This document shows positions 60,571-64,000 of a stretch of DNA of 64,000 bases, in pieces. Below the pieces are notes generated by a model. That model did no database searches, was not told the origin of the DNA, and worked only from the letters and a program-made list of their open reading frames with translations. Made by a program: the position numbers and the translations under genes. Numbering within the stretch: the first letter of the stretch is position 1; each line of letters opens with the position of its first letter. The stretch is taken from the NCBI GenBank assembly GCA_963626925.1, contig CAVFZO010000151.1, positions 1,308-65,307 on the forward strand. The letters are read 5' to 3'. Origin of the DNA: Clostridium sp. AM49-4BH (GTDB lineage Bacteria; Spirochaetota; Spirochaetia; Sphaerochaetales; Sphaerochaetaceae).

Positions 60571-60654
60571 GGCGTGATGGCGGAATTGGTAGACGCAGTA
60601 GACTCAAAATCTGCCGGAGGCAACTCCTTGTGGGTTCGATTCCCACTCGCGCTA
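60571..60654 (+). tRNA. tRNA-Leu (anticodon CAA)
   Basis: Hand-folded: acceptor GGCGTGA/TCGCGCT (two G-U pairs), D arm GCG-GAATTGGTAGA-CGC, anticodon stem GTAGA/TCTGC with loop CTCAAAA, a long variable arm, and T arm GTGGG-TTCGATT-CCCAC. Confidence 0.85.
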
Positions 60655-60660
60655 TCCTTT

Positions 60661-60698
60661 AAGACAGGTTTTGATACAATTCAGAATCTGTCTTTTTT
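60661..60698 (+). terminator. hairpin plus T-tract after tRNA-Leu
   Basis: AAGACAG (60661-60667) pairs with CTGTCTT (60688-60694), followed by TTTT. The 20-nt loop is long for a terminator. Confidence 0.45.
60662..60686. repeat. direct repeat, left copy (att-like) bounding the islet
   Basis: AGACAGGTTTTGATACAATTCAGAA matches 63530-63554 (AGACAGGATTTGACACAATTCAGAA) at 23 of 25 positions. Both copies are followed by a T-rich tail. Confidence 0.8.
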
Positions 60699-60793
60699 AT
60701 GACATTGTTCACCAAGTATATAATTGAGAGGGAGAGGTACAAAATGTTAACATATTTGTTGACATTTCAGCACCGTTACATTAAGTTTTGAGT

Positions 60794-60903
60794 GTAGGAT
60801 TTTATATCACTATACACCTCGGAGGTAGTGAGTATTGCACTTAAATGTTATCTGTTAACATCACCCTCCTTGGGGAAGCCACCAAAACGGTGGTTCTTTT
60901 TTT
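60794..60903 (+). ncRNA. candidate small RNA or cis-regulatory leader upstream of the DUF3800-like gene
   Basis: Promoter-like TTGACA (60759-60764), 17-nt spacer, TAAGTT (60782-60787). About 110 nt downstream is a terminator-like hairpin GAA(G)CCACC-AAAAC-GGTGGTTC plus 7 T (60875-60903). An internal long hairpin is GGAGG(TA)GTGA...TCAC(C)CTCC. Confidence 0.3.
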
Positions 60904-60914
60904 GAGGGAGATTG

Positions 60915-61604
60915 ATGATGCATCCTGTAGTTTATGTCTATTCCGATGAATCCGGGGTGTTCGATAAATTCCACAAAGATTACTTCGTCTATGCCGGCAT
61001 AGCAGTAATCGGACAGGACAATGCATCAATACTCACAAGGTCTTATCTGAATGCTGAAAAAAATCTTCGTAAATCATGCAAATATAAAGAACTACCGGAG
61101 CTGAAGGCATCAAAGCTCGAGAATGATGCCAAAAGAAAACTGTATAGAATAATCAAGGACTGCTACAAATTCATCGTTGTTGTAAGATTGAAAAAATTGC
61201 AGGATGAACGATTCTGCAACCGACTTTCACAACAGCGGTACCTGGACTATGCGTATAAGAGGGGACTTAAAAATCTTCTTCGGAATATGGCCAAAAACGG
61301 AGAACTAGATCTTTCTCAAGAGTTTGAAATCAGATGCTACATAGACGAGCACAACATTGCGACTAACGGCAGATACGACTTAGCCAACTCCATTTATACA
61401 GAATTCAAGAGAGGGTTGTATCTTCCGAACTTTGAAATAAAACCAATCGCAACTGGGCTATGGGACGTATCAACTACCTATTGCAACTCTGAAACAAACA
61501 CGCTTGTCAGAGCTTCAGATATACTGGCAAACAGAGCTTTATTTGAAGCCAAGAATGGATCAACACTACAAGATAGCCATACCTCGGTACTTACACTTCC
61601 GTAG
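60915..61604 (+). CDS. DUF3800-like protein
   Basis: N-terminal VYVYSDESGVFD motif (the Y.DESG pattern I associate with DUF3800). ~229 aa, AT-rich, SD GAGGGAG just upstream. Confidence 0.55.
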   Translation: MMHPVVYVYSDESGVFDKFHKDYFVYAGIAVIGQDNASILTRSYLNAEKNLRKSCKYKELPELKASKLENDAKRKLYRIIKDCYKFIVVVRLKKLQDERFCNRLSQQRYLDYAYKRGLKNLLRNMAKNGELDLSQEFEIRCYIDEHNIATNGRYDLANSIYTEFKRGLYLPNFEIKPIATGLWDVSTTYCNSETNTLVRASDILANRALFEAKNGSTLQDSHTSVLTLP

Positions 61605-61890
61605 CATTTTATACATGTCTCAGAATTTCACATCCCGGCAAAAACTATAGCAACGCTGAACACACAGAGTATGTATCTGTGTTTCATGCTAGGCTCATCA
61701 TTCTATTATTAGACGCATATCTCTAAAGTACAAAAGTCAAAGTAATGTCCTCTCGAATACTACTTCACCCTGCGCTTCATTAAGGGAGGTGATAATGCAC
61801 CTATCAGAGACCAGATGACACGGCAGTGCCAGTATGAAAGCTCTCTATATTTCCTCGATATGATGATACCACACTGATCGATACAAGTAT

Positions 61891-62199
61891 TTAAACAGTA
61901 CTGTAACTATAAGGTTTAATTGAAGAAATCTCACTTTTAAGACGCGTCTTCAGCTCTCTTATATCAAGATCGTTCTGCAGGTTAAGAAAATACCTGTCTG
62001 AGACGCCGAAATAGCGTGCAAGTCTTATGGAAGTATCGGGGGTAATCTTACGTCCGCTGTTAAGGATAGCCTGAATCCTGGACACAGGAACATGTATATC
62101 ATGTGCAAGTTTATAGGATGAGAGATTCATCGGAACCATGAACTCTTCTTTCAAAATCTCACCCATTGTCGGTGCTTCAATGTAATCGTTCATACCCAT
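61891..62199 (-). CDS. higA: HigA-family antitoxin (XRE HTH)
   Basis: GEILKEEFMVPMNLSSYKLAHDIHVPVSRIQAILNSGRKITPDTSIRLARYFG is the HigA/VapI pattern. I chose the ATG at 62199 behind GAGGAG. Confidence 0.8.
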   Translation of the reverse strand: MGMNDYIEAPTMGEILKEEFMVPMNLSSYKLAHDIHVPVSRIQAILNSGRKITPDTSIRLARYFGVSDRYFLNLQNDLDIRELKTRLKSEISSIKPYSYSTV

Positions 62200-62210
62200 C
62201 TCCTCTTCTG

Positions 62211-62345
62211 TCAATGATAATCAACAATCTCAACACAGTGAAAATCATTCTTCTCTTCAAGAGTAAAACCTACTCTCCACATCATTTATGCATTTGAAGA
62301 TTCAAGCATTTTCATGCTTTCTCCCTTCAATTTTATCCTCTTCTG
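62211..62345 (-). pseudogene. decayed HigB (RelE/ParE-fold killer) remnant
   Basis: Hand translation of the minus strand gives ...KLKGESMKMLESSNA*MMWRVGFTLEEKNDFHCVEIVDYH*. The C-terminal WR..F....D....V.IVDYH is the HigB signature, but there is an internal TAA at 62286-62288 and no N-terminal half. Confidence 0.6.
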
Positions 62346-62371
62346 GTTTTCATAAAGAAGAACTCCCTTCC

Positions 62372-62584
62372 TTACCGCATTCTCACAACCTTGATATCAC
62401 AATCGAGAGTTCTGACAACCTTCATGAGGGTGTCGAGCTGAGGTGAGGCTTTCTTACTCTCCAAGTGTGCTATGCCAGACTGCGTCAGAGAACAGGAAGA
62501 CGCAAGCTCGGTTTGAGTCATTCCCTTTTTATGTCTCTCTTCAATGATGGCATCTATTACACGGGAGGAAGCCTCAGTTGTCAT
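62372..62584 (-). CDS. XRE-family HTH transcriptional regulator (70 aa)
   Basis: KKGMTQTELASSCSLTQSGIAHLESKKASPQLDTLMKVV. Its start overlaps the stop of the upstream precursor-peptide gene by 11 nt. Confidence 0.8.
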   Translation of the reverse strand: MTTEASSRVIDAIIEERHKKGMTQTELASSCSLTQSGIAHLESKKASPQLDTLMKVVRTLDCDIKVVRMR

Positions 62585-62930
62585 ATCTTTGAGGACAGTA
62601 GCAAAGAAACAAACCTTCTCTTTTTAAGTATTTACAGTGCATGCAAAATCTTTTGCGTCCATTGGGATCGTCAGGTTCAAAGTATGCACAATGGTTAAAG
62701 TCTGTAACAACTGGTCTCTTGTCTTTGTAGATTGTCCCACATTTCCCGCCACCGGACACATTGTCCAGTTCATCATCTGTAAGCTCACCTTCCTTGGCAT
62801 TGAGCTTAGCAAAATATGTCTTTGCTTCTTCATCTGTCAGCTCGAAGCCGTTTTCCCTTGCAATAGCAACAAGTTCTTCAGCTGTTTTTGCATTCTTTGC
62901 TTTTTCAAGTATTTTTTCGTTAAGTTCCAT
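62574..62930 (-). CDS. Nif11-type leader / double-glycine precursor peptide with a Cys-rich 56-aa core (copy 1)
   Basis: The leader MELNEKILEKAKNAKTAEELVAIARENGFELTDEEAKTYFAKLN...ELTDDELDNVSGG resembles Nif11/N11P leaders. The core is KCGTIYKDKRPVVTDFNHCAYFEPDDPNGRKRFCMHCKYLKREGLFLCYCPQRYDN (6 Cys). SD AAGGAAG lies upstream. Confidence 0.75.
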   Translation of the reverse strand: MELNEKILEKAKNAKTAEELVAIARENGFELTDEEAKTYFAKLNAKEGELTDDELDNVSGGGKCGTIYKDKRPVVTDFNHCAYFEPDDPNGRKRFCMHCKYLKREGLFLCYCPQRYDN

Positions 62931-62971
62931 ATCTTTACTTCCTTATTTTGAATCTGCTCAGAATGTCAGAT

Positions 62972-63328
62972 TCAGTTCTCGTATCTCTCGGGGCAGTCGC
63001 AAACATACATCCCGTCATACCCCTTGTACTTGCAAGTACCACAAATCTCCCAGTCGACTCCCTCTTTCCAAACTTCAAAGTAATCACAGCAGTTGAAAAA
63101 GGTAATAACCGGTTTCCCGTTTTTGTAGGTTGTTCCGCATTTTTTGCCACCGGCAACATTGTCGAGTTCATCATCAGCAAGTTCGCCACCTTTTGAATTG
63201 AGCTGAGCAAAATAGTTTTTTGCTTCTTCCTCTGTAAGCTCGAAGCCGTTTTCCTTTGCCAAAGAGTAAAGTTCTTCAGCTGTTTTTGCTTCTTTTGCTT
63301 TTTCAATCAGTTTCTCATTAAGTTTCAT
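62972..63328 (-). CDS. Nif11-type leader / double-glycine precursor peptide with a Cys-rich 56-aa core (copy 2)
   Basis: The leader is 46/62 identical to copy 1 and ends in ...ELADDELDNVAGG. The core is KCGTTYKNGKPVITFFNCCDYFEVWKEGVDWEICGTCKYKGYDGMYVCDCPERYEN (7 Cys, 6 aligned with copy 1). The SD context is identical. Confidence 0.75.
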   Translation of the reverse strand: MKLNEKLIEKAKEAKTAEELYSLAKENGFELTEEEAKNYFAQLNSKGGELADDELDNVAGGKKCGTTYKNGKPVITFFNCCDYFEVWKEGVDWEICGTCKYKGYDGMYVCDCPERYEN

Positions 63329-63529
63329 ATTCTTACTTCCTTATTTAAGATTTTACTTTATATATACGTGCGGATTTGGATTTTGTTAGGAGGAAAAAAA
63401 TCATTTTTATACACATCTTCCATCAGAAACAATTCTGATTCGCCACTCTGTCCGACACATCTACCTCTATTCCCCCCTAACCTTCGCTAAGTTATACTGT
63501 ATCAAAAACTAATGGTGAACATAAGAAAG

Positions 63530-63554
63530 AGACAGGATTTGACACAATTCAGAA
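63530..63554. repeat. direct repeat, right copy (att-like) bounding the islet
   Basis: AGACAGGATTTGACACAATTCAGAA matches 60662-60686 at 23/25 positions. It lies immediately 3' of the TetR-like gene's stop (63565-63567). Confidence 0.8.
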
Positions 63555-63564
63555 CCCTTTTTTC

Positions 63565-64000
63565 TCAGCATGGGTTGTCGATTATCGGGATACCGGCCTT
63601 TGAGGAGAACATCTTGCTGACCTCCAGGGGGATATCGAAAAGGGTGCAGTCAAGGTGGCCGTTGAACCATTCCTGGTAGAGTGTGGTCAGCCCGCCGGCA
63701 AAGTAGCATGCCCTGATTCTGAACGCCTTGGAGGATCTCACATCCTGGGGGATTGACTGGTCCTTCTCAAGATAGTCCACAAAGAGATTCATCAGCTTTT
63801 CAAGAAAGAGATTGCTCCCGGGAGTCTTGATCAGCGTCCTGTATGTCTCTATGTCCTCATTGAGGATGATACTCACCTGCAAAAGAAGAGGAGATGGGTT
63901 AGAAAAGAAGTTATCAGCCTTGAAATCCTTGAGAATGGCCATGAGCTTGTCTATTACCTCATTCTCTATCTCCTCCGAGAGATCTCTGAGGCAGGAGTAA
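63565..64000 (-). CDS. TetR/AcrR-family regulator, C-terminal part (partial; continues beyond the window)
   Basis: The reading frame stays open upstream of the first Met to the window edge. The C-terminal helical domain (ACYFAGGLTTLYQEWFNGHL) resembles DhaS-like TetR C-terminal domains. The N-terminal HTH is not in the window. Confidence 0.45.
   Translation of the reverse strand, partial: YSCLRDLSEEIENEVIDKLMAILKDFKADNFFSNPSPLLLQVSIILNEDIETYRTLIKTPGSNLFLEKLMNLFVDYLEKDQSIPQDVRSSKAFRIRACYFAGGLTTLYQEWFNGHLDCTLFDIPLEVSKMFSSKAGIPIIDNPC

Follow-up and report, generated by a model that had tools for sequence, protein, structure and literature searches.

How did a short AT-rich islet, carrying no integrase of its own, come to lie between a tRNA-Leu(CAA) gene and a TetR-family repressor gene, with one copy of a direct repeat at each end? 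The islet (60655-63567) is found in the window analyzed here, a stretch of 64,000 nt from a Sphaerochaetaceae metagenome-assembled genome (MAG), hereafter G000, assembled to 2.34 Mb in 164 contigs with 82% completeness and 2.9% contamination. The window corresponds to C151:1308-65307, and the contig continues to C151:71271. A first-pass annotation, made from the letters alone, had read the repeat as an att site or target-site duplication left by an integrative element. We compared the locus with 81 genomes (species) of the same genus (designated by G numbers), 40 relatives having been looked at first. The islet is an ordinary decaying insertion at a tRNA hotspot, and the repeats that flank it are two copies of a tRNA terminator hairpin (HP).

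The 25-nt repeat is located at 60662-60686 and 63530-63554, with 23 of 25 positions matching. This agrees with what had been annotated. The left copy begins 8 nt past the end of tRNA-Leu(CAA), and the right one ends 10 nt before the TetR stop codon (63565-63567). The similarity actually runs further, since a CTTTTTT tail also aligns after a 3-nt gap; this extends the left segment to 60698 and gives ca. 37 nt common to both copies. In the sister allele of G086, a genome of another species, the repeated segment begins 4 nt earlier, still within the spacer past the tRNA end. Allowing up to 3 mismatches, these two were the only copies in the whole genome (2.34 Mb), and an nhmmer profile of 22 family members recovered the same two and no others (E values of 1.2e-15 and 4.1e-5), so that a dispersed genome-wide motif, which had been named as one finding that would speak against the islet, was rejected. 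None of 100 shuffled windows contained two matches. The left copy folds with -17.8 kcal/mol (z of -5.1) and was also called by a terminator scan; it is predicted to be the working, strong intrinsic terminator of tRNA-Leu(CAA). In the right copy (HP'), the 3-nt gap and a substitution have done away with the 3' arm of the outer stem, and folding is weak on either strand (-9.3 and -9.6 kcal/mol, with a z of -1.9 for the value of -9.3). Their loops are also different, GATAC in the left copy and GACAC in HP', the latter found as well in copies from G079 and G077. The two are thus different natural alleles and therefore not a target-site duplication; they would fit one imported and one resident copy. 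No tRNA-like sequence was found ahead of the right copy, and the repeat does not include the tRNA 3' end. The hairpin itself has a simple structure, with a 14-bp stem, a 6-nt loop and a T-run, and no GTTRRRY core. The repeats are direct, ca. 37 nt long, nonidentical and limited to two genome copies, which is not the pattern of an insertion sequence (IS) or of a miniature inverted-repeat transposable element (MITE).

Members of the HP family were present in 13 of the 81 species, with 1 to 4 copies each. They are located directly behind complete tRNA-Leu(CAA), tRNA-Leu(UAA) and tRNA-Met(CAU) genes, behind partial 3' ends of tRNA-Leu(CAA) (9 to 21 nt), and at the boundaries of cargo blocks. Over 21 copies, the helix is paired in 90.4% of cells, and three pairs have changed on both sides. 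In the distant genomes G010 and G021, a covarying homolog that agrees with HP in its spacer and loop is located behind tRNA-Leu(UAA), and the terminator behind their tRNA-Leu(CAA) is unrelated to HP, indicating that tRNA-Leu(UAA) is the ancestral location of HP and that the other sites are secondary. The hairpin travels together with the DNA that follows it. HP plus downstream DNA is 90% identical over 313 nt between tRNA-Leu(UAA) of G077 and a 9-nt tRNA-Leu(CAA) fragment of G079, and 80% identical over 346 nt between tRNA-Leu(UAA) of G087 and an 11-nt tRNA-Leu(CAA) fragment of G082. In G079, tRNA-Met is followed by HP and then by a DUF3800-I-like RNA homologous to the left end of the islet. 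A parallel case is that of G083 (C44; L065:4555-7983), in which tRNA-Met is followed by HP, an AbiEi/AbiEii toxin-antitoxin system, a second HP (2.4 kb), an intact HigB/HigA pair and more genes, 7.4 kb in total; the HigA DNA is 79% identical to that of the window. In G000, the tRNA-Met (contig C10) is followed by a native terminator of another kind, and the same downstream gene is reached after only 231 nt, i.e., this is a clean empty site. This movement of HP and cargo between tRNA contexts means that the inserted blocks carry HP at their tRNA-proximal edge, where it would replace the terminator cut off by the insertion. A conserved 87-aa gene upstream of some HP copies was considered as part of the unit and discarded, as it had no homologs at the other copies. 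Outside the genus, no HP was found in a species-representative collection; a viral collection gave no match and a metagenome collection a single one, which was unrelated.

The position itself is a hotspot. The closest relative is G077, with a patatin flank 90% identical to that of G000 and an identical tRNA-Leu(CAA), which is of the type of their own clade. In G077 (contig C2), a 41-kb element sits in tRNA-Leu(CAA), delimited by a 19-nt direct repeat inside the tRNA. It has a 406-aa tyrosine integrase (415-aa open frame) beside the distal repeat, and HP has been displaced together with this distal copy. The element may be a prophage or an integrative and conjugative element (ICE). Another element follows tRNA-Leu(CAA) in G082 and G084, the contigs of most relatives break at this tRNA, and the DNA past the hairpin is different in every species. 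One contiguous example is G081, which has 4.7 kb with ATPase and PD-(D/E)XK genes between tRNA-Leu(CAA) and TetR, the latter divergent from a resistance-nodulation-division (RND) efflux operon and forming the right border of the cargo. The contents of this slot differ among G081, G087 and G084, so that the interval between the tRNA and TetR is a site of replaceable cargo. Homology to the TetR ortholog of G084, 86% identical, ends exactly at 63564, and HP was absent from the TetR 3' end in every examined relative in which this end could be placed, G084 included.

The enclosed DNA (2,843 nt) has a GC content of 39.7%, versus a genome mean of 50.1%, and only 0.24% of the genome windows of the same size are equally AT-rich. 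The earlier estimate of 38% inside was close; that of 55% for the flanks was too high (they have about 50 to 52%). The islet begins 46 nt past the end of tRNA-Leu(CAA), directly behind the tRNA terminator, and no recombinase open reading frame was found in 60655-63567, so it is indeed integrase-less. The proposed cargo, i.e., a DUF3800 gene, HigA with a decayed HigB, an XRE regulator and two Nif11 precursors, was borne out by matches to PF12686, TIGR02607, HTH_3 and TIGR03798 (Table 1). PADLOC made no defense-system call for the DUF3800, HigA or Nif11 proteins. Decay is evident in the toxin gene, of which the remaining codons span 62214-62279, with the scar of a 465-nt deletion at about 62291. 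In a Logan contig of the unrelated run ERR2145013, the same DUF3800 gene precedes a HigA and a HigB that are both intact; when compared with this allele, the deletion is common to G000 and G086. The window HigA is 97% identical to that of the intact allele L124, and the DUF3800 protein is identical in Logan contigs of ERR2145013 and SRR13434603.

Among the 81 genomes, the complete islet is found in G000 and G086 only, and its modules appear singly elsewhere (HigA in seven genomes, Nif11 in three, and the DUF3800-I RNA in four). A protein identical to the second Nif11 precursor adjoins the same TetR in six MAGs. In one MAG of the G086 species, the region 61068-62915 has been swapped for ca. 170 nt of another gene fragment. 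Separately, the contigs of five of the eight MAGs of this species end between the two Nif11 genes (62915-62951), which points to strain variation or to the collapse of these 78%-identical paralogs. In G087 (C125; L138:218-3912), the genes after the TetR ortholog encode an AAA_14/DUF4143 ATPase and two Nif11 precursors (137 and 118 aa), and part of a large serine recombinase is also present. Since a Nif11 pair thus stands beside TetR in G087 too, the islet is probably not one element but was put together from two or more blocks, DUF3800 plus HigBA and XRE plus the Nif11 pair. The recurrence of Nif11 beside TetR-RND in a second species may also reflect a functional link, e.g., export or immunity.

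Table 1. Features of the tRNA-Leu(CAA)-TetR interval, in window coordinates
Feature	Position	Strand	Evidence or remark
tRNA-Leu(CAA)	60571..60654	+	ARAGORN; Rfam RF00005, 52.4 bits
Left HP copy	60661..60700	+	14-bp stem-loop + T6; folding energy, terminator scan
Islet left edge, DUF3800-I RNA promoter region	60701..60786	+	private differences clustered here
DUF3800-I RNA (RF02969)	60787..60907	+	50.3 bits vs gathering score of 44.2
DUF3800 protein gene, 229 aa	60915..61604	+	PF12686, E 1.2e-9
HigA antitoxin, 100 aa from ATG at 62193 (frame to TTG at 62214)	61891..62193	-	TIGR02607, 83.6 bits
HigB remnant, last 22 codons + stop	62211..62279	-	tblastn with intact 94-aa L124 HigB; alignment gap
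XRE-family HTH protein, 70 aa	62372..62584	-	PF01381, E 7.5e-11
Nif11-leader precursor 1, 118 aa	62574..62930	-	TIGR03798, 41.7 bits vs cut-off of 32.3
Nif11-leader precursor 2, 118 aa	62972..63328	-	TIGR03798, 42.3 bits
Right HP copy (HP')	63530..63563	+	GACAC loop allele; abuts TetR stop codon
TetR-family repressor, 214 aa, 3' part	63565..64000 (runs past window)	-	PF14278

We give roughly an even chance to the following history: an insertion at the tRNA end or at HP gave the tRNA an imported, working terminator and left its former one beside TetR, and the islet has decayed since. Most likely, the left HP would have arrived together with the DUF3800-I RNA/DUF3800 block behind it, and the right HP would be the older resident terminator, pushed 2.9 kb away from the tRNA, made redundant and since decayed. 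That the left terminator is strong and the right one weak supports this order. The cargo would have entered through recombination at either HP or the 3' end of the tRNA, by means of a site-specific recombinase acting in trans or lost since then; alternatively, a single crossover between an HP on a circular intermediate and the resident HP could have had the same outcome. With HigB deleted, HP' degenerate and the internal replacement seen in one strain, the islet would now be a fossil rather than an active element.

Several observations weigh against this history. Searches of the 81 genomes with either flank and with the islet itself revealed no empty site (tRNA, a single HP and TetR). None appeared among the eight MAGs with the same TetR either; beside it, all eight keep a Nif11 gene (of 118 aa in seven, an 82-aa call in the eighth) and the degenerate HP'. 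Look-ups in public assemblies by the exact Nif11, TetR, patatin, PIN and DUF3800 proteins did not provide an empty site, and those with the RND pump of C68 and with the XRE protein returned no record. The element of G077, the only complete one with an integrase at this tRNA, uses a core inside the tRNA and merely displaces HP, so that HP need not be the recombination site. Given the Nif11 genes beside TetR in G087, the right half may be a long-standing resident and not an import. The exact islet represents one independent instance, as the G000 and G086 alleles are 99 to 100% identical, and the relative age of the two HP copies is read from their degree of decay and from allele sharing, both weak grounds.

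A recombinase tied to HP-bounded blocks was not found either, nor was an element with the same att and an integrase matching the two flanking HP copies. G000 has three PF00589 matches, all of them outside contig C151. One belongs to a 409-aa tyrosine integrase (C128:2337-3563) on a 3.7-kb contig, the other end of which begins in a tRNA-Met-like gene; this could be the sign of a further integrated element in G000. As a cognate enzyme it was discarded, as it is not beside any HP and is 25% identical to the tRNA-Leu integrase of G077. In G086, the native bearer of the islet, the recombinases are limited to two Xer-like ones, with no resolvase, and in the HP-rich genomes the integrases are not on the contigs with HP, G077:C2 being the exception. 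Overall, the reading of the first-pass annotation stands only in part. The foreign composition, the insertion hotspot, the variable cargo and the case of G083 speak for an insertion, and what flanks it are differing alleles of a terminator hairpin instead of a tRNA end, around a composite islet, with no empty site and no HP-specific integrase.

It might be argued that there was never a discrete insertion, and that this is an old, fast-evolving spacer between the tRNA and TetR, subject to piecemeal exchange, deletions and small insertions. HP' would then be a leftover paralogous terminator with no meaning as an att site, e.g., a former bidirectional terminator common to tRNA-Leu and TetR. The failure to find an empty site is in line with this, as are the dispersal of the modules in separate genomes, the Nif11 genes adjoining TetR in G087, and a within-species variation that consists of internal replacement and not of presence or absence of the whole islet. 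However, HP' is missing from the TetR 3' flank of all the other orthologs examined, blocks bounded by HP are also found at other tRNAs, where an empty site allows a comparison, and the composition is uniformly foreign over the whole 2.84 kb. We consider such a spacer unlikely. The opposite extreme, a dispersed terminator or REP-like motif with a coincidental pairing at this locus, would be consistent with the left copy being a bona fide terminator and with the family occupying several loci in some relatives. It is effectively refuted by the presence of just two copies in G000, whose other tRNA genes have terminators unrelated to HP, and by the distribution among the relatives, none of which has more than four copies, nearly all tRNA- or partial-tRNA-linked.

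More ambitious proposals give the hairpin an active role. HP could be a portable tRNA terminator that serves as the leading edge and attachment site of integrase-less blocks, with an unrecognized hairpin-directed or short-homology capture that stacks defense and toxin-antitoxin cassettes at several tRNA genes of this Sphaerochaetaceae clade; this seems improbable. If true, each block would restore termination to a tRNA cut off from its native terminator. More improbable still, HP would be the recombination site of a dedicated hairpin-recognizing cassette capture system (integron-like or IS110/HUH-like) that stacks integrase-less cassettes behind tRNAs. The tandem HP-cargo-HP arrangement of G083, with its toxin-antitoxin cargo, would be expected from such a system. 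So would the movement of HP and downstream cargo among three tRNA loci, the letters TA that precede most non-tRNA copies of HP, as at the tRNA end, and an IS110 transposase near one copy (G016:C202). Yet neither an integron integrase nor another recombinase is consistently linked to HP (the two Xer-like genes are all that G086 has), the hairpin (ca. 34 nt) lacks attC architecture, its copies do not exceed four per genome, one in G090 is inverted, and the family did not turn up beyond the genus or in the viral and metagenome collections.

How the islet came to be in G000 is a separate matter. Identity to G086 is 60 to 80% up to about 60750 and 99 to 100% from about 60800 to the end of C151, over more than 9.2 kb. 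This near-identical segment spans the islet and the TetR-RND operon, past the right repeat, and therefore the limits of the latest transfer or join are not set by the repeats. For the right part, 40 to 83 differences were counted per 6,489 nt, versus 26 to 90 among the eight MAGs of the G086 species. At the left end, 24 of the 26 differences private to G000 (versus the G086 and ERR2145013 alleles) fall within 60655-60800. A second TetR-RND of G000 (C68:3734-10180) has the 90% identity to G077 and G078 that is also seen in the rest of the genome, and is therefore the native copy; its contig ends in a multicopy IS-like repeat. In nearly identical form, the islet is also present in another species and in a metagenome run with no relation to this one. 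From these comparisons, either C151 would be chimeric or strain mixed, or the region would have been acquired lately from the G086 species.

A chimera or strain mixture, in which the patatin-tRNA-Leu flank of G000 was joined near 60800 to the islet and TetR-RND of a co-resident strain of the G086 species, so that the islet, although real, would belong to G086, is a serious possibility, if somewhat short of even. The sudden leap in identity is what it predicts, the right part is no more divergent than strains of the G086 species are from each other, a native TetR-RND with the same 90% identity to G077/G078 as the patatin flank is already present on C68, and the MAG is incomplete and slightly contaminated. 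Besides, an independent Logan contig with the patatin gene of this strain ends inside the tRNA, indicating a branch in the assembly graph. On the other hand, the segment 60655-60800 is private to G000 and still ca. 80% homologous to the left end of the islet, so that the native genome must already have had islet-like DNA there. A join at k=55 requires at least 54 identical nt, present only inside the islet; no contig end for an alternative path has 31-mers in common with the region, and the bin has no second patatin-tRNA-Leu locus. The same pattern would result from a genuine transfer in recent times or from polymorphism in the population.

Some other observations were made along the way. A repeat of ca. 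140 nt (C68:10785-10925) occurs with 96 to 100% identity on at least 15 other contigs of G000, at the ends of many of them, and probably represents the end of an IS. On C43, one copy immediately follows tRNA-Leu(UAA), at the place occupied by HP in relatives. It should be noted that MAGs in this GTDB genus bear conflicting public organism names (e.g., Ruminococcus intestinalis, Muribaculaceae, Eggerthellaceae and Anaerovoracaceae).

The comparison with known systems helps to place the islet. Like the tRNA-linked islands with a tyrosine integrase (P4-like and ICE-type, e.g., that of G077:C2), it is located directly 3' of a tRNA gene, has an atypical composition, direct repeats and accessory cargo of the toxin-antitoxin or defense type, and its content varies by species. 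It differs in having no integrase, in its size of only 2.9 kb and in a repeat that is the downstream terminator instead of the tRNA 3' end; neither was the precise empty-site polymorphism of those islands seen here; other species hold different cargo instead. Cis-mobilizable elements (CIMEs) and decayed remnants of integrative elements are known from the ICESt1/ICESt3 family of Streptococcus thermophilus. They resemble the islet in being integrase-less blocks with att-like direct repeats at a hotspot, where neighboring blocks accrete and are movable only by a recombinase in trans; in our case, however, the host genome yielded no cognate element combining this att with an integrase. Chromosomal integron cassette arrays are known in spirochetes from Treponema denticola. 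The small promoter-poor cargo, often toxin-antitoxin genes, the imperfect hairpin repeats and the tandem stacking (G083) are reminiscent of them. HP blocks, in contrast, lack IntI, their hairpin of ca. 34 nt is a terminator with a T-run and not an attC, and the arrays have two or three units that start at a tRNA instead of attI. Finally, the left unit of the islet is a textbook instance of a DUF3800-I RNA with its own terminator (60877-60902 by the terminator scan) directly upstream of a DUF3800 gene, and shows no difference from the family already described (Weinberg et al. 2017, PMC5737381). Copies of this RNA are also found in G082:C53 and G016:C26, without a DUF3800-linked hairpin.

The unusual points are thus limited to the portable terminator and the inter-species identity; otherwise, this is an integrase-less tRNA-linked islet with known kinds of cargo. 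The switch from ca. 70 to 99-100% identity behind the tRNA represents either an inter-species exchange of a drug-efflux operon together with the islet or a chimeric contig, and is a warning for island calls based on MAGs. Duplicated terminators can be the source of the direct repeats by which islets are recognized, since the inserted blocks seem to bring their own tRNA terminator, and the tools for island finding that look only for repeats of tRNA fragments would miss islets flanked in this way.

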